21,723 nucleotides of DNA from a virus, in UHGV virus genome UHGV-1576676; one strand, written 5' to 3'. Below, one piece after another: positions 1 through 6,148 of this stretch. The notes under the pieces were generated by a model that searched no databases, was not told the origin of the DNA, and worked only from the letters and a program-made list of their open reading frames with translations. A program made the position numbers and the translations under genes. Position 1 is the stretch's first letter. Every line of letters begins with the position of its first letter.

Positions 1-2
1 CC

Positions 3-140
3 GCTTCTCAACCCGGTACGCACCAGAAAATCATTGATATGGCCATGAATGGCGTTGGATGCCGGGCAACAGCCCGCATTATGGGCGTTGGCCTCAACAC
101 GATTTTACGTCACTTAAAAAACTCAGGCCGCAGTCGGTAA
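3..140 (+). CDS. insA: IS1 InsA, C-terminal 45 codons (5' end outside window)
   Basis: Frame 3 translates to [45 protein letters not shown] with stop at 138-140. Confidence 0.85.
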
Positions 141-562
141 CCTCGCGCATACAGCCGGGCAGTGACGTCATCGTCTGCGCGGAAATGGACGAACAGTGGG
201 GCTATGTCGGGGCTAAATCGCGCCAGCGCTGGCTGTTTTACGCGTATGACAGGCTCCGGAAGACGGTTGTTGCGCACGTATTCGGTGAACGCACTATGGC
301 GACGCTGGGGCGTCTTATGAGCCTGCTGTCACCCTTTGACGTGGTGATATGGATGACGGATGGCTGGCCGCTGTATGAATCCCGCCTGAAGGGAAAGCTG
401 CACGTAATCAGCAAGCGATATACGCAGCGAATTGAGCGGCATAACCTGAATCTGAGGCAGCACCTGGCACGGCTGGGACGGAAGTCGCTGTCGTTCTCAA
501 AATCGGTGGAGCTGCATGACAAAGTCATCGGGCATTATCTGAACATAAAACACTATCAATAA
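59..562 (+). CDS. insB: IS1 InsB reading frame (expressed as the InsAB' transposase by -1 frameshift at the A6C motif)
   Basis: 167-aa ORF in the track matches IS1 InsB as recalled (one D/S-type difference noted); A6C slippery site sits upstream at ~115-121. Confidence 0.9.
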
Positions 563-723
563 GTTGGAGTCATTACCCCATATGACGATAATATTTCGTT
601 ATATTCTTCAATAAGAGCTTTTCTTGTTTCCACTGAATTACAATCTACCTTCGAAAAGTCAACTTCATCAGCAAAAACATTAAATGTTAAAAAGGAAAGC
701 ACTAAAAACAAACGAATCAGCAT
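556..723 (-). CDS. Hypothetical short ORF with N-terminal signal-peptide-like segment; its 3' end runs into the IS1 terminal repeat, so it is probably an IS1-truncated gene
   Basis: AGGAG 7 nt upstream of the internal ATG ([18 protein letters not shown]...); last ~7 codons and the stop lie inside IS1 sequence (boundary at 577); AT-rich context. Confidence 0.25.
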
Positions 724-972
724 AAATCCACTCCTACGCATGGATTAATAGTCATTGATCGCAAAGGCGTAAACTTGCCAAAGGTATTTCGTATAATCGG
801 TACAAATCTCCTTTACGCTTGATGCTGCATTAACAGTCCCAGCCATAAATAATAACGATAGTAATAGTTTTCTCATTATAACCTCACCTGCCTTATAACC
901 CATTTAGGGTACATATTTTCGCCTTTAAAAAAAAGAGGTTATTAGATCCAATTGTGTATTTATTAAGCAGAT

Positions 973-989
973 AATGCTCTAATAAATTT
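973..989 (+). promoter_or_regulatory. C1 repressor operator (Op51-like) overlapping the -35 of the immI promoter
   Basis: aatgctctaataaattt matches the P1 C1 operator consensus ATTGCTCTAATAAATTT at 16/17; its TGCTC sits 17 nt upstream of a weak -10-like taagtc; same motif recurs at 2643, 16538 and 20059. Confidence 0.6.
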
Positions 990-1179
990 GTATTTTTAAG
1001 TCACGAATGCTATCTTTTCGCATCATATTGACCTTTTAATCGTTCAGGCTTATAGTTCCGCCGTCGTAGCAAATTCTGCGACCGGGTTTAGCAGCCTGAA
1101 TGATTGTGCGGACAGCCGCAGATATCCGATATTGCGGTATTTTTGTGTCCGTAAAACCGCGTTACGCCCAAATTATGGT

Positions 1180-1260
1180 GGGGCGTGATGGGGAGGCTTC
1201 GGCCTGCTGGTTTCACAATCGCCAGTCTGCTAACCCCGTCACGTCCTGCCACCTGTTTAG
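1180..1260 (+). ncRNA. c4: c4 antisense repressor RNA region of immI (approximate boundaries)
   Basis: Lies between the operator and icd as in P1; tcacaatc (1213-1220) is complementary to gattgtga (1287-1294) overlapping the icd ribosome-binding site, and ttagcag near 1228 is echoed in the 1250-1275 target region. Exact ends not determinable by eye. Confidence 0.35.
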
Positions 1261-1303
1261 CAGCGGGTAGCAGGTTGTTAAACCTGATTGTGAGGCCGTA
1301 ACT

Positions 1304-1525
1304 ATGGTTAATGCCAATCCTTGCGCACGCCCAGAATTCATCTGGCGTTTCTATTCCTGTAAAAAACACCACTATCACTTCGTTATCGCAGCAACTGAAG
1401 ACGAAGCACGCTCTCAATTGCCTGATGGCCCCTGCATTTTTACTGCCCGTTTTTCAACTAACTCGCGCAATTCACTTAGTTACTGGAGCCTCCCCTTCTC
1501 TGCCGACGTTCAGGGGCGTTTATGA
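1304..1525 (+). CDS. icd: Icd-like small protein, translationally coupled to ant1 (ATGA overlap)
   Basis: 73-aa ORF with GAGG 9 nt upstream; stop overlaps the ant1 ATG at 1522; position between c4 and ant matches P1 immI. Confidence 0.5.
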   Translation: MVNANPCARPEFIWRFYSCKKHHYHFVIAATEDEARSQLPDGPCIFTARFSTNSRNSLSYWSLPFSADVQGRL

Positions 1526-2565
1526 AAAAACCTCTCGTCACCCGTAATGACATAGCCGAAGCGATCGCCCTGCATACTGCCTGTATACCGACACGGGAGA
1601 TCCCCGGCGCAATTGCCAACTATTTCATGATAACCAGGCGTTTTTATACCCGAACAGATAAGGCTGTGATCAACAGGCTACTGATAGCCGAGATCAGGGA
1701 TTATTTGATTGAACAAGGACGTCTACGTTACGCAACGGTGGCAGCAGAAATGAGAAAGGAGGCACATAGAATGACCAGTAATAATTTGAATGTTAAAAAA
1801 CCAGCACCTGTTGCTTCAGCAACGCCAGCACCAGCCGTGAATGTCATCCCCACCACCGGAGACACAATCGACAGCCTGACACTGTTAAAGATGGTCAATG
1901 AAGCGCGTAAGTTATGTGGGGAACCAGAGGTTCGGAACAACAAATTCATCGAAAAAATACTCGACGAATTAGAAGGTGAGGACGGTTACACAAAAAGTGC
2001 AACCGTGCCGCCAGGTGGCGGTACGCCTATGGTTGTCATAACCATGACCTACAAACAAGCCCTGCGAGTCGCCGCGCGCGAATCGAAAGCGGTCCGCCGT
2101 TCGCTGATCGACAAACTGGAAGAATTGCAGCAGGCAAACTCCCCTACCCCATCGATCCCCCAAACATTACCAGAAGCCCTACGCCTGGCTGCCGAGTTGG
2201 CAGAACAGAAATTGCAGCTGGAACAACAGCTGGTGGCCGCAGCCCCTAAAGTCGATTTTGCCGACCGGGTATCAGTGGCTAATGGAATCCTGATCGGGAA
2301 CTTTGCAAAGGTCGTTGGACTTAAGCAAAACGCCCTTTTCTCATGGTTGCGCCAGAACGGCATTCTCATGGCTTTTGGTGCGCGCAAAAACGTACCGCGC
2401 CAGCAGTACATTAACGCCGGGTATTTCACGGTGAAAGAAGTGGTGCTGGATGATGAAAATGGCTACCAGATACGGCTGACGCCCCAATTAACGGGTAAAG
2501 GCCAGCAGTGGTTAACTCGCAAGCTACTTGATGCTGGTTTGTTAAAACCAGTAGCAATAGGTTAA
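1522..2565 (+). CDS. ant1: Antirepressor Ant1 (full length)
   Basis: 347-aa ORF; its C-terminal ~130 aa is paralogous to the KilA C-terminus in this window (antirepressor C-terminal domain); synteny c4-icd-ant-kilA-repL. Confidence 0.85.
   Translation: MKKPLVTRNDIAEAIALHTACIPTREIPGAIANYFMITRRFYTRTDKAVINRLLIAEIRDYLIEQGRLRYATVAAEMRKEAHRMTSNNLNVKKPAPVASATPAPAVNVIPTTGDTIDSLTLLKMVNEARKLCGEPEVRNNKFIEKILDELEGEDGYTKSATVPPGGGTPMVVITMTYKQALRVAARESKAVRRSLIDKLEELQQANSPTPSIPQTLPEALRLAAELAEQKLQLEQQLVAAAPKVDFADRVSVANGILIGNFAKVVGLKQNALFSWLRQNGILMAFGARKNVPRQQYINAGYFTVKEVVLDDENGYQIRLTPQLTGKGQQWLTRKLLDAGLLKPVAIG
1771..2565 (+). CDS. ant2: Antirepressor Ant2, in-frame internal start within ant1
   Basis: Internal ATG at 1771 (Met84) preceded by a strong AAGGAGG at 1756-1762; P1 is known to make Ant1 and Ant2 from nested in-frame starts. 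Confidence 0.6.
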   Translation: MTSNNLNVKKPAPVASATPAPAVNVIPTTGDTIDSLTLLKMVNEARKLCGEPEVRNNKFIEKILDELEGEDGYTKSATVPPGGGTPMVVITMTYKQALRVAARESKAVRRSLIDKLEELQQANSPTPSIPQTLPEALRLAAELAEQKLQLEQQLVAAAPKVDFADRVSVANGILIGNFAKVVGLKQNALFSWLRQNGILMAFGARKNVPRQQYINAGYFTVKEVVLDDENGYQIRLTPQLTGKGQQWLTRKLLDAGLLKPVAIG

Positions 2566-2577
2566 CAAAAGAAAAAA

Positions 2578-2603
2578 CCTGCCAGCAAACTGGCAGGTTT
2601 CTG
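2578..2603 (+). terminator. Rho-independent terminator after ant
   Basis: cctgccag-caaa-ctggcagg hairpin followed by tttctg, just after the ant stop. Confidence 0.55.
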
Positions 2604-2642
2604 AGCAGATCGACCAACCCGATCTGGATCGAGTCAGAAAAA

Positions 2643-2659
2643 TTTGCTCTAATAAATTT
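2643..2659 (+). promoter_or_regulatory. C1 operator (Op53-like) overlapping the kilA-repL promoter
   Basis: tttgctctaataaattt is 16/17 to the operator consensus; TTGCTC as -35, 17-nt spacer, taagtg as -10-like; followed by the inverted repeat aatcacca...tggtgatt at 2677-2701. Confidence 0.65.
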
Positions 2660-2728
2660 CGTTTTCTAAGTGCAAAGAATCACCATTTCGAGCTGGTGAT
2701 TGAAGGTTGATGCAAATTTGGAGAAAAA

Positions 2729-3529
2729 ATGCAACAAACATTCAATGCGGATATGAATATATCAAACCTTCATCAAAATGTCGATCCTTCAACCACTCTG
2801 CCTGTTATTTGTGGTGTTGAAATTACGACCGACCGCGCTGGCCGTTACAACCTTAATGCTCTACACAGAGCGAGCGGACTCGGTGCCCATAAAGCGCCAG
2901 CTCAATGGCTAAGAACGCTGTCAGCCAAACAGCTCATCGAAGAGCTTGAAAAAGAAACTATGCAGAATTGCATAGTTTCGTTCGAAGGCCGTGGCGGCGG
3001 CACTTTTGCCCATGAATTGCTCGCTGTGGAGTACGCAGGCTGGATTTCTCCCGCGTTTCGGCTGAAGGTAAACCAGACATTTATCGACTATCGAGCCGGA
3101 AGATTACAACCTGCTATTCCGCAGAGTCTCCCTGAAGCTCTCCGTTTGGCTGCCGACCTGGCAGAGCAAAAGCAACGGCTGGAGCAAAAAATGCTTATGG
3201 ATGCACCTAAAGTCGAATTCGCCGAACGCGTTGCTACCGCCAGCGGGGTTCTAATCGGCAACTATGCCAAAGTGCTCGGTCTGGGCCAAAACTATCTCTT
3301 CACCTGGTTGCGTGATAACGGAATTCTGATCGCAACCGGTGAACGCAGGAACGTCCCCAAACAAGAATACATATCCCGTGGGTATTTCACCCTTAAAGAA
3401 ACCGTGATCGATACAAGCAATGGAAGCAGGATTTCTTTCACGACTCGTATAACCGGCAAAGGTCAGCAGTGGCTGATGAAGCGATTGCTTGATGCTGGTG
3501 TGCTGGTACCTGTCGCGGCAACGCGCTAA
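2729..3529 (+). CDS. kilA: KilA (KilA-N domain protein with antirepressor-type C-terminal domain)
   Basis: 266 aa, the length recalled for P1 KilA; GGAGA RBS; C-terminal half aligns to the Ant C-terminus (PQSLPEALRLAADLAEQ...GKGQQWL...LLDAG). Confidence 0.85.
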   Translation: MQQTFNADMNISNLHQNVDPSTTLPVICGVEITTDRAGRYNLNALHRASGLGAHKAPAQWLRTLSAKQLIEELEKETMQNCIVSFEGRGGGTFAHELLAVEYAGWISPAFRLKVNQTFIDYRAGRLQPAIPQSLPEALRLAADLAEQKQRLEQKMLMDAPKVEFAERVATASGVLIGNYAKVLGLGQNYLFTWLRDNGILIATGERRNVPKQEYISRGYFTLKETVIDTSNGSRISFTTRITGKGQQWLMKRLLDAGVLVPVAATR

Positions 3530-3558
3530 CAGACGTAGTAAGAACCACCAGCATTGTA

Positions 3559-4404
3559 ATGCTGGCTAAAGTCACTTTCCTGAGCTGTATAACGATGAGC
3601 GATTTTACTTTTTCTGGCTATGAATTGGCCTGCTTTGTAACACACTCCGGTCTATCCCGTAGCGCCGGGCATATCCTGTCGCAATGTGCAAATCTAGCGG
3701 CAACAACCAGTGAATACTTCATTCACAAGCCTCACCGCCTGATCGCGGCAGAAACTGGTTATAGCCAATCAACCGTCGTTCGTGCATTCCGTGAAGCTGT
3801 AAACAAAGGAATCCTGTCTGTAGAGATTGTTATCGGCGATCACCGTGAACGTCGCGCTAACCTGTACCGGTTTACACCATCCTTTTTGGCCTTCGCACAA
3901 CAAGCCAAAAATGCGCTGATTGAAAGCAAATTAAAGATCTCTTCAGCGGCAACCAAGGTTAAAGCTGTTCTCGCTAAGACATTGGCTTTATTTAATTTTT
4001 TATCCACACCCCCATGTCAAAATGATACCCCCTCCCCCTGTCAGGATGACGTGGCAATAAAGAATAAGAAGTCACAAGTTAAAAAAACAAAAAGATCAGT
4101 TTCCGGCGGTGCCGGAACGAGCAGACTCAAAAAATTGACTTCATGGATCGCTGAGGCAAAAGCAAAGGCTGACAATCTGCGGTTATCCAAAAAACGCGCT
4201 CAAAAACATGAGTTCAAGCAGAAAGTAGAGGCGGCAGCGCGGAAATATGCTTACCTGAAGAACAAGCGTTCTCCTGATATTGGCGGGGTATCAAACTTCG
4301 ATAATCTGCCGCATTGCATGATGGTAAACGAAGCTCTTAATGCGGTTTTAGCCAAAAATAAAGATAACGAACAATGGGGTATACCGGCGGGATTCAGAGG
4401 GTGA
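3559..4404 (+). CDS. repL: RepL lytic replication initiator (oriL expected inside the gene)
   Basis: 281 aa, the length recalled for P1 RepL, directly downstream of kilA; start is uncertain (no clear SD at 3559; alternative Met13 at 3595). Confidence 0.75.
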   Translation: MLAKVTFLSCITMSDFTFSGYELACFVTHSGLSRSAGHILSQCANLAATTSEYFIHKPHRLIAAETGYSQSTVVRAFREAVNKGILSVEIVIGDHRERRANLYRFTPSFLAFAQQAKNALIESKLKISSAATKVKAVLAKTLALFNFLSTPPCQNDTPSPCQDDVAIKNKKSQVKKTKRSVSGGAGTSRLKKLTSWIAEAKAKADNLRLSKKRAQKHEFKQKVEAAARKYAYLKNKRSPDIGGVSNFDNLPHCMMVNEALNAVLAKNKDNEQWGIPAGFRG

Positions 4405-4688: not shown

Positions 4689-4887
4689 CATACGTAGATT
4701 AGCCTCTTACCGACCAAAAGGTCAAGGAGAAGCAGGCTATGAAGCAGCAAAAAGCGATATTAATCGCTCTGATCGTCATCTGTTTAACCGTCATTGTGAC
4801 GGCACTGGTAACGAGGAAAGACCTCTGCGAGGTACGAATCCGAACCGGCCAGACGGAGGTCACTGTCTTCACAGCCTACGAATCTGA
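4681..4887 (+). CDS. mok: Mok-like overlapping reading frame (modulator of killing)
   Basis: 68-aa ORF starting 58 nt upstream of hok and covering it in another frame, as mok does in hok/sok loci. Confidence 0.5.
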   Translation: MLSIRRLASYRPKGQGEAGYEAAKSDINRSDRHLFNRHCDGTGNEERPLRGTNPNRPDGGHCLHSLRI

Positions 4888-4894
4888 AAGGTAA
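4739..4894 (+). CDS. hok: Hok/Gef family membrane toxin (type I toxin-antitoxin)
   Basis: Own translation: MKQQKAILIALIVICLTVIVTALVTRKDLCEVRIRTGQTEVTVFTAYESER (51 aa), collinear with R1 Hok (…[28 protein letters not shown]); the leader from ~4570 (gcttgaggct…) resembles the R1 hok mRNA 5' end. Confidence 0.9.
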   Translation: MKQQKAILIALIVICLTVIVTALVTRKDLCEVRIRTGQTEVTVFTAYESER

Positions 4895-5010: not shown

Positions 5011-5520
5011 TTAATCCCACTCAATCCAGTTGTAGACGATACGAAGTGACGGGCGCACAGCGGCAGTCACATCTTCGGTACTAAAGTCGATTGCATCACT
5101 GTAGATTTTGCAGTCCAACATTTCAATTGTTGTAGCAGCTTTTGTCACAGCGTTAACCCCGGAAGATTTGGATTCAGGGGTAGCAGCCATCGTGATATCA
5201 ACATAGTCCTTCGCCGCAATGCGATCTTTAATGAACTGAAGAATATCGCCTTCGATAGTCTCCACGCACTGGACCTGGATTTCCCCAGAGTTTCGAATTG
5301 GACCGTGCTGGTTGAACTTCACACCATTCGGACCATAGTCCTCCACATCCTCGCGGGTCATTTCAGGAATTTGCGACGTGCGAACCAGTACGCTGATATC
5401 TTCATGGCCTGCAAAAGTGAGCTGGAATTCAGAAGATACCAGTCGTTCGCCTTTGGCCGCGTTGGCAGTATAGCGGCCCTTAATAAATTTACGGTTTCCC
5501 TTAGTGTTATTGTGCCCCAT
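5011..5520 (-). CDS. Phage late/morphogenesis protein, 169 aa (tail-associated; function not assignable from sequence)
   Basis: AAAGGA RBS; compact same-strand array downstream of the sheath/head genes; C-terminus ...IVYNWIEWD loosely recalls tail-tube protein endings, but in P1 the tube gene is recalled to lie elsewhere. Confidence 0.6.
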   Translation of the reverse strand: MGHNNTKGNRKFIKGRYTANAAKGERLVSSEFQLTFAGHEDISVLVRTSQIPEMTREDVEDYGPNGVKFNQHGPIRNSGEIQVQCVETIEGDILQFIKDRIAAKDYVDITMAATPESKSSGVNAVTKAATTIEMLDCKIYSDAIDFSTEDVTAAVRPSLRIVYNWIEWD

Positions 5521-5531
5521 ATAAAATCCTT

Positions 5532-6113
5532 TTACTGGAACGCCCGAACAATATCGGAGCTGTTATATATCGAAGAACCGGTCAACTGGAGGTTGACGGT
5601 GTTTTTCAGGAAATGTCCATTGCTGTCCCTGGGCGCATCGAGATCGAAACTTATGTCCTGGATAGCGACATCAATGATGTTGATCCGGCGACCAATGTTT
5701 AGCGTCACACGCTCCGGGATTCGACCACCAATACTGGCATCTTTAAGTTCCGGGCTAATCATCGCTGACAATGCGGCGATAGCTCCTGAAACCTCCGTGA
5801 ATGGGTCAAACAAAGCGATGAAAGTTACTGGCAGCGTGAAAGTCGGCGGTGTTCCCCCTTCCCAAACCATTAAGCTGTTCCAACGGGCAACCGACGTTGT
5901 TTCAGTACCAACCTGCGCAAAACCACTGAAGGCACCAGCAACAGATCCCATGGACATACCGGTAAACGGCGCTTCCCAATTCTGGGCCATGTTCATTGCC
6001 GCTCCCTGGCTGATATATCCGGTAACCTGGTACTGAGAGTTCGTTAAAGTAACTTTCAGATATGGCGATACACCGTCAGCCTGGCTGTAAACCCCATAAG
6101 GAATAGGTGCCAT
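5532..6113 (-). CDS. Phage late/morphogenesis protein, 193 aa (putative tail or baseplate component)
   Basis: Long ORF tightly packed in the late operon, 12-nt gap to the next gene; no recognisable enzymatic motif. Confidence 0.6.
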   Translation of the reverse strand: MAPIPYGVYSQADGVSPYLKVTLTNSQYQVTGYISQGAAMNMAQNWEAPFTGMSMGSVAGAFSGFAQVGTETTSVARWNSLMVWEGGTPPTFTLPVTFIALFDPFTEVSGAIAALSAMISPELKDASIGGRIPERVTLNIGRRINIIDVAIQDISFDLDAPRDSNGHFLKNTVNLQLTGSSIYNSSDIVRAFQ

Positions 6114-6148
6114 TCAAGTTAAAGGCCGGAGTTCTCCGGCCTCCTCCT

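Follow-up and report, generated by a model that had tools for sequence, protein, structure and literature searches.

simB of a P1/P7-mosaic phage-plasmid is split by IS1, very probably through insertion of an IS1-corA-IS1 composite transposon

The stretch of DNA analysed here, referred to as the window, is the 21,723-nucleotide UHGV virus genome UHGV-1576676, and it begins within a copy of IS1. Positions 1-577/580 share 99.0-99.7% identity with IS1 elements recorded from phages and plasmids, and 1..577 on the plus strand was assigned to the 3' 577 bp of IS1A (IS1 nt 192-768) on the basis of this identity, the right inverted repeat and the NCBIfam model NF033558. Because window position 1 corresponds to IS1 nt 192, the left end of the element lies outside the window; in relatives with an identical junction the IS1 is the full 768 bp, with its left inverted repeat (IRL). 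The right-end terminal repeat expected for IS1 (GGTAATGACTCCAACTTATTGAT...) is present at 551-577, where the right inverted repeat (IRR) GGTAATGACTCCAACTTATTGATAGTG was found as an exact 27-nt string on the minus strand, in agreement with the initial annotation, which had placed the end of this repeat at 577. On the minus strand, a hairpin resembling a terminator (580-565) was discarded, as it lies within the IS1 repeat and shuffled sequence gives one such match too. The insA and insB' frames and the A6C site that characterize IS1 and its InsAB' DDE transposase were all found: the 3' end of insA (1..140, plus strand, part of IS1A) has its stop at 138-140 according to sequence reading and the ORF list, the A6C −1 frameshift motif was read at 116-122 on the plus strand, and the insB frame at 59-562 matches InsB (NF033558, 145.6 bits, cut-off 100). 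The transposase is transcribed rightward, outward to c4. The resident IS1 of P1 (isaA-IS1-isaB, P1 ~21.5-24.2 kb) is the same insertion sequence, with 99% identity to the IS1 in the window; it sits in the variable region RD-2, elsewhere than sim (PMC6906374), and simB of P1 itself is uninterrupted, unlike that of the window. By its features, the IS1 in the window is an ordinary insertion, and this kind of event is already known.

To the right of IS1 the window is collinear with P1, window position 578 being equivalent to P1 47745 (96% identity for 578-3000 compared to P1 47745-50167). The P1 sim genes form the simA-simB-simC superimmunity operon, of which simB is the second gene, and are all annotated on the minus strand of NC_005856 (gp041-043), with simC at 46786-47580, simB at 47573-47908 and simA at 47912-48070, and a junction at P1 47744/47745 therefore places the insertion point inside simB. 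The native 5' half of simB, in its P1-annotated extent, occupies 578-741 on the minus strand and runs on into IS1 as a simB'::IS1 fusion ORF at 556..741 on the minus strand (translation, PHROG 14329, PGAP call). This ORF is identical to P1 SimB over residues 1-55 of 111 (...SSYG) and then adds VMTPTY and a stop from IS1, at the point where P1 SimB continues with ITVVDSYNQ...; it is the inverted repeat of IS1 that supplies the six terminal codons and the stop (575-556), with the stop itself at 558-556. The initial annotation had described a minus-strand ORF at 556-723 with a good Shine-Dalgarno sequence and a signal-peptide-like N-terminus, terminating within IS1 and suggesting a truncated resident gene. 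Each of these statements was borne out: AGGAG lies 7 nt ahead of the ATG at 723 as read directly from the sequence, the N-terminus reads as a Sec signal peptide with a predicted cleavage at VFA/DE, PGAP calls the same ORF (WP_001569404.1) in two RefSeq plasmids, the stop lies inside the inverted repeat, and the truncated gene can now be named as simB, identical to P1 through residue 55.

SimB has 111 aa in the P1 annotation and 105 aa when counted from the second ATG, which is preceded by the Shine-Dalgarno sequence (PGAP, p64EVA-6). Since it is this ATG, at 723 in the window, that follows the Shine-Dalgarno sequence and at which both the PGAP call and the PHROG 14329 profile begin, it is the probable true start of simB. 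With this numbering the cut falls after codon 49 (codon 55 in the P1 annotation), leaving 49 of the 105 native residues, of which 31 would be left after the predicted VFA/DE cleavage. The window ORF spans only positions 1-51 of the 105 positions in the PHROG 14329 profile, and the full-length simB (105/111 aa) of the P1 sim operon is not present in the window. The simB remnant is probably a secreted peptide of ~37 residues that is functionless. A 55-codon ORF ending at the same position in relatives that do not carry IS1 would have spoken against a truncation, but the full-length version was found in these relatives: simB runs uninterrupted across the insertion point in P1 and p64EVA-6, and it is likewise full-length in the PLSDB plasmids with an uninterrupted insertion site (n=138). 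This establishes that a resident gene was truncated. When compared to Pfam and NCBIfam, SimA, SimB and SimC gave nothing over threshold, the only matches being sub-threshold ones to TcpS and tRNA_anti-like, so that these searches assign no functional family to the three proteins; in PHROGs, the Sim proteins belong only to families of 'unknown function'.

The initial annotation also held that the sim genes would be absent, and this view has to be reversed. The 397 bp from IS1 to the operator is P1 sim region, containing an intact simA and the 5' half of simB; as had been proposed, the tract following 577 was aligned to the P1 sim region, and it proved to be 98.1% identical over 578-1060. Intact simA (52 aa as annotated in P1) lies at 745..903 on the minus strand and equals P1 47912-48070 according to the ORF list and the alignment. 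Translation of simA probably begins with the ATG at 876, which would give the signal peptide MRKLLLSLLFMAGTVNA, and the P1 copy of simA matches PHROG 3933 with E = 6.7e-24. The P1-predicted positions of PsimB (875-903) and PsimA (941-967), both on the minus strand, were transferred by coordinate from NC_005856 through an ungapped alignment, and it should be noted here that the two promoters are predictions only, even in P1. The predicted positions of both are retained, and they would still drive simA and simB', now severed from simC. The arrangement resembles P1 simABC in its place between pmgC and Oc4/c4, its 98% nucleotide identity and its identical SimB residues 1-55, and differs from it in that simB is broken at codon 55 and simC is displaced by 3.2 kb. 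The GC content is 0.31-0.37 over window positions 500-1100 compared to 0.56 in IS1, and the low GC at simB fits the preference of IS1 for AT-rich targets. In P1-like phage-plasmids simABC represents a low-GC variable region and insertion hot-spot (PMC9603915, PMC6906374), and simA, simB and simC were non-essential in a CRISPRi screen (PMC10695390). As sim is dispensable for lytic growth, an interrupted allele would be tolerated.

The control region of immI follows directly. The C1 operator Oc4 (Op51), AATGCTCTAATAAATTT, was located at 973-989 on the plus strand (P1 48140-48156) from the P1 and P7 alignments, and its measured distance of 396 bp from the IS1 end agrees with the figure of about 400 bp given initially. 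Downstream on the plus strand are the promoters P2c4/P51a (988-1016, P1 annotation) and P1c4/P51b (1028-1056, P1 annotation and an independent promoter scan, TTGACC-17-TATAGT), the a1b1 target element of C4 RNA (1050-1102, Rfam), and the C4 antisense RNA gene of the P7 specificity type (1171-1256, P7 alignment), for which the Rfam scores of 69.6 bits (RF01695) and 55.5 bits (RF03163) both exceed the gathering thresholds. These are followed by icd (1304-1525) and ant1/ant2 (1522-2565), both intact and on the plus strand, as judged from the ORF list, the P1 and P7 annotations and collinear RefSeq plasmids. All elements of an immI operon were thereby found, namely Oc4, P51a/b, C4 RNA with its a1b1/a2b2 targets, icd and ant1/ant2. 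P1-type sequence gives way to P7-type at Oc4, 973-989; from 975 onwards this region agrees with P7 at every base, while its a/b recognition bases are not those of P1. Accordingly typed, the immI region that adjoins sim in the window is P7-type, whereas the sim neighbour in P1 is a P1-type immI. By sequence, simA and every immI control element are untouched by the insertion.

The IS1 end together with the adjoining DNA contains a candidate IS1/target hybrid promoter, TTGGAG-17-GATAAT, read directly from the sequence at 564..592 on the plus strand: TTGGAG (564-569) lies in the IRR and GATAAT (587-592) in simB DNA, with a 17-nt spacer between them. It is oriented toward Oc4 and c4, antisense to simB' and simA. 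Either this promoter or read-through from the transposase gene might make the IS1 end a regulatory element, which would give C1-independent transcription of c4-icd-ant as well as antisense transcription of simA and simB'. The inverted repeats of IS1 do contain a −35 box directed outward (PMC8764528, citing Prentki 1986) and can form hybrid promoters with a −10 box at a suitable distance (PMC8764528, PMC9330008 Table 1), GATAAT is placed precisely as required by its 17-nt spacer, and the scan detected no terminator-like site on the plus strand between 577 and 1056. Against such a role, the −35 of the candidate is weak, matching the consensus at three of six positions (TTG only), which is why the promoter scan made no call at 564-592; in other cases, IS1 raised, lowered or left unchanged the expression of neighbouring genes, depending on the context (PMC8764528). 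The candidate lies ~440 bp upstream of P51b. The immI operon has P51b as a constitutive promoter, and it is subject to feedback by the C4 RNA, which is processed from the same operon transcript and sets the output of icd and ant. Because C4 RNA derives from that transcript, extra transcription from upstream should raise the repressor and its target together, and with a constitutive promoter already in place downstream a large effect of IS1 is not expected. A meaningful effect of this IS1 on immI appears unlikely.

As the window begins inside the right arm, only the right junction is visible in it, and the window's own left context (second IS1, corA, simB 3' half and simC) was inferred from relatives. 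In CP034659, a plasmid of E. coli ATCC 98082, the order is pmgB, tub, pmgC, simC (259 aa), simB 3' half, IS1(−), yigE fragment, ysgD, corA, IS1(+) and simB'. The two IS1 arms of 768 bp each (positions 2907-3674 and 5381-6148 of the extracted locus L003) are inverted, each having its right inverted repeat on the outer side, and together with 1,706 bp of cargo they form a unit of 3,242 bp in total. The sequence CCATATGAC, which follows IS1 at 578..586 in the window, occurs once in P1 (L001 3001-3009) and is likewise found directly outside the left IS1 in CP034659 and JBRKIK010000002, which on comparison of P1 and the relatives makes 578..586 the right-hand copy of a 9-bp target-site duplication, the second copy lying outside the window, on the opposite side of the composite in relatives. 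In short form, the CP034659 junctions read ...ttattCCATATGAC/GGTAATG... on the left and ...CATTACC/CCATATGACgataat... on the right; at greater length, the left junction of CP034659 is ...ctgttattCCATATGAC/GGTAATGACTCC, the right junction, shared by the window and CP034659, is GGAGTCATTACC/CCATATGACgataatattt, and the uninterrupted P1 site is ...ctgttattCCATATGACgataatattt, which occurs a single time. JBRKIK010000002 (L008) represents a second assembly with the same composite and the same duplication, so that two IS1 copies, a cargo between them and a duplication outside both were found in L003/L007 as well as in L008. The search for the other IS1 end and a target-site duplication, which the initial annotation had called for, was therefore successful in CP034659 and JBRKIK010000002, where the duplication measures 9 bp, while for the window's own left side both are inferred. 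A 9-bp duplication around the whole unit is the signature of one composite transposition. The composite transposon with corA had not been anticipated in the initial annotation.

Tn9 is an IS1 composite with direct repeats and Tn1681 one with inverted IS1 repeats. The unit in the lineage of the window likewise consists of two 768-bp IS1 copies around captured DNA, its arms being inverted as in Tn1681, and like IS1 composite transposons it is surrounded by a 9-bp duplication of an AT-rich target; it differs from them in that its cargo is a chromosomal piece with no resistance or toxin gene. The literature search retrieved no Tn number and no published description for the corA unit or the simB insertion. 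The cargo of 1,706 bp comprises a yigE' fragment, ysgD and corA, and it is 97-99.9% identical to chromosomal yigE-ysgD-corA of E. coli, with matches in 5,426 of 5,426 complete genomes. These matches identify the E. coli chromosome as its origin. The same 1,706-bp fragment is present in 57 plasmids, including the IncHI1 plasmids R27 and pHCM1, and corA on IncHI1 plasmids has received a passing mention only (bioRxiv 10.1101/334409). In R27 only one IS1 adjoins the corA cargo, and at a second site, in CP061751, an IS1-cargo-IS1 unit occurs without a 9-bp duplication, which leaves simB as the one site that speaks for transposition of the unit as a whole. IS-borne cargo has been described in other P1-like phage-plasmids, with ISApl1-mcr-1 in ant1 and IS1380/IS5-blaCTX-M-55 in upfA (PMC5786510, PMC9603915). 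The present case is similar to those insertions in being IS-carried cargo in a low-GC, dispensable variable region, and it is unlike the mcr-1 and blaCTX-M-55 insertions in that the cargo is a housekeeping Mg2+/Co2+ transporter gene and confers no antibiotic resistance.

The interrupted allele is not restricted to the window and is frequent among E. coli assemblies in public collections. Its junction is shared by two complete RefSeq plasmids (CP034659 and CP061756), and looking up the exact fusion protein led to further contigs. The junction is base-for-base identical in 10 of 10 related loci examined, from at least 10 independent assemblies, which together with the near-identity of the matches over hundreds of bases is more than chance would give. 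In seven of the ten, the backbone stays collinear with that of the window over 6-10 kb, with 1-5 mismatches; the backbones of L012 and L014 extend for 9.9 kb before divergence, with at least 12 mismatches. The exact 55-aa fusion protein is found in 171 contigs under the NCBI label MULTISPECIES [Enterobacteriaceae], and the commonest full-length SimB variants in 87 and 46 contigs (among the 15 members listed, from a reading of 40 of the 209 in the cluster). The backbone of p64EVA-6, in which simB is full-length, is 99.2% identical to window positions 578-21723. The window differs from every related record compared and has a private base at 1517. A search with the exact 33-nt right junction gave no match in a species-representative genome collection, a negative of little weight since each species is represented there by one genome. 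The combined data indicate that simB::IS1 is a single allele passed on within a common lineage and is not peculiar to the window.

Taken as a whole, the comparisons make it very probable that simB was split by a single insertion of the IS1-corA-IS1 composite in a P1/P7-mosaic phage-plasmid. The composite would consist of two inverted IS1 copies, their right inverted repeats outward, around 1,706 bp of captured chromosome; one transposition of this 3,242-bp unit into AT-rich simB would have duplicated the 9 bp CCATATGAC, and the resulting allele would then have been widely inherited, with a later IS26 rearrangement in some plasmids. The latter is exemplified by CP061756, which has the same cargo (1 base different in 1,706) and the right arm, but in which IS26 has left only the IRL end of the left IS1, next to a fragment of repA, and another copy of IS26 follows past parA. 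From this arrangement we conclude that the left-side rearrangement in CP061756 is a later IS26 event. Since the left arm is cut by IS26 and the backbone rearranged in this plasmid, the source of the window could likewise be rearranged.

It is possible to imagine that the window genome has a single IS1 and not the composite at the same simB site, with the simB 3' half and simC directly beyond, and the window indeed shows one IS1 end only. Its IS1 has 1-4 position differences from the arms in CP034659 and CP061756 and 3-4 from the right arms of these complete plasmids, so that it is identical to neither right arm; moreover, although recombination between inverted arms cannot delete the cargo, other routes could. 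Yet corA adjoins IS1 in all four contigs that reach past it (L002, L007, L008 and L009), the last of these being KB732924, in which corA lies beside the simB-junction IS1, and most other contigs end within IS1. The identical junction and 9-bp sequence throughout argue for one ancestral event, and because the duplication flanks the whole unit this event was the composite, which makes a lone IS1 in the window very unlikely. Slightly less probable again is that the junction was left behind when an IS1-mediated deletion or rearrangement removed simC and neighbouring tail genes and produced a defective prophage, a view near to the initial one of an absent sim, for although IS1 is known for adjacent deletions and inversions (PMC9330008) and CP061756 is rearranged to the left of the cargo, where IS26 truncates the left IS1 beside a repA fragment, that rearrangement is IS26-linked and secondary, in two assemblies the composite is flanked by perfect 9-bp repeats of a sequence which P1 contains only once, and the simB 3' half, simC, pmgC and tub are intact beyond it, as is the signature of a simple insertion. 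The 9-bp duplication and the intact simC, pmgC and tub also exclude that the IS1 in the window is the resident IS1 of P1 joined to simB by an adjacent deletion.

An insertion of the composite has its main predicted consequence for simC. In P1, simC starts 8 nt inside the 3' end of simB, and no promoter of its own is annotated between the two genes. Among the sim genes only simC lies outside the window, and it is intact beyond the transposon in relatives whose contigs reach far enough; in these relatives simC no longer adjoins and overlaps simB as it does in P1, the 3.2-kb transposon being inserted between them. IS1 is strongly polar, and two copies of it, within 3.2 kb of inserted DNA, would now separate simC from the sim promoters. 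Expression of simC from its native signals is therefore expected to be lost, with read-through from the left IS1 as the remaining route; as transcription from this IS1 is directed outward and has the same sense as simC, some expression could persist. The older literature reports that cloned simC alone is sufficient for the Sim phenotype. In this phenotype superinfecting P1 is excluded by processed, exported SimC, which fits the GenBank note and Devlin 1982 as cited in PMC10695390. With simC cut off in this way, a loss or strong reduction of the Sim exclusion that acts on superinfecting P1 is probable, where the underlying statements on Sim biology derive from GenBank notes, secondary citations and general background.

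There is a small chance that the insertion is non-neutral, in which case the 171 contigs with the fusion protein, compared to the 87 and 46 with the commonest full-length variants, could reflect selection, for which three candidate causes may be named. Firstly, lost Sim exclusion could permit superinfection by and recombination with P1/P7 elements, which would fit the P1-sim/P7-c4 mosaic. Secondly, the selected trait could be the extra plasmid-borne copy of corA. Thirdly, it could be IS1-driven transcription into the P7-type c4-icd-ant operon.

All the parts described here are known, namely IS1, the IS1 composite, P1 sim and the P1/P7 immI region, and the insertion is already annotated in RefSeq. 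The value of the present analysis lies mainly in annotation: sim is present but split, the 55-aa ORF is identified, a composite has been found and a lineage marker is at hand. The 'hypothetical protein' WP_001569404.1 (55 codons), which recurs in many Enterobacteriaceae assemblies, is a simB::IS1 remnant and does not represent a gene family. The junction, in which the IS1 right end is followed by CCATATGACGATAAT, can serve as a clonal marker for a widespread P1/P7-mosaic phage-plasmid lineage, and where IS1 stands beside immI in this lineage, it signals a small composite transposon with corA; because the junction IS1 lies at this point, short-read contigs of these plasmids break here. If Sim exclusion is truly abolished, the lineage would be more open to related phage-plasmids, which bears on recombination and on the uptake of resistance genes.

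Judged from the sequence between positions 578 and 1320 of the window, the element is a P1/P7 mosaic. Comparison with both phages showed that the segment at 578-974, which carries the IS1-truncated simB (simB') and simA, is of the P1 type, whereas P7 has unrelated lipoprotein genes at this place. From position 975 on, the c4 region is identical to that of P7, and its a/b recognition bases are those of P7 and differ from those of P1. The change from P1-type to P7-type sequence is located inside the Oc4 operator, at about 973-989.

Further along the immI operon, position 1517 carries a G-to-C change (CAGGGGGGTTTATG to CAGGGGCGTTTATG) that is private to the window when compared with all 10 related loci sharing its IS1/simB junction. 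The base lies within the G-run that forms the ant1 Shine-Dalgarno region, and the change also converts a Gly codon of icd to Arg, two codons ahead of the icd stop. The difference may be genuine and influence the translation of ant1, or it may be a sequencing error in the homopolymer. The region downstream of repL, a known variable region in P1-like plasmids, contains a gene for a type I toxin of the hok family, annotated as hokD (plus strand, about 4739-4894, transferred from NZ_CP061756 8415-8570) and a membrane-protein fragment, whereas P1 has rlfA and rlfB at this position.

Other shortened forms of SimB were represented in public data by the proteins P0005 and P0012. A 64-aa variant with a different C-terminal tail (…NQKLFRKE) was found in E. 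fergusonii, and a 76-aa variant in 12 contigs. Disruption of simB may have occurred independently more than once.

Compared with the right arms of the composites in NZ_CP061756 and NZ_CP034659 (the latter at 5381-6148 of locus L003), the IS1 sequence of the window (1-577) shows 3-4 differences, whereas a single position separates it from the left arm in NZ_CP034659 (L003 2907-3674). This pattern suggests that the inverted IS1 arms exchanged sequence, either by homologous recombination that flipped the cargo or by gene conversion. In NZ_CP061756 (931-1779 and 16825-17529; loci L002 and L006), two IS26 copies appear to have inverted or rearranged the stretch between the left IS1 arm and parA. 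This rearrangement split the IncY repA, and of the left IS1 it spared just the IRL end.

The cargo between the IS1 arms, outside the window, is a 1,706-bp E. coli chromosomal fragment, yigE'-ysgD-corA (L003 3675-5380, corresponding to NZ_CP034659 52878-54583). A further 57 plasmids carry the same fragment with 99.6-100% identity, among them the IncHI1 plasmids R27 and pHCM1 of Salmonella Typhi. The housekeeping Mg2+/Co2+ transporter gene corA is in circulation on IS1.
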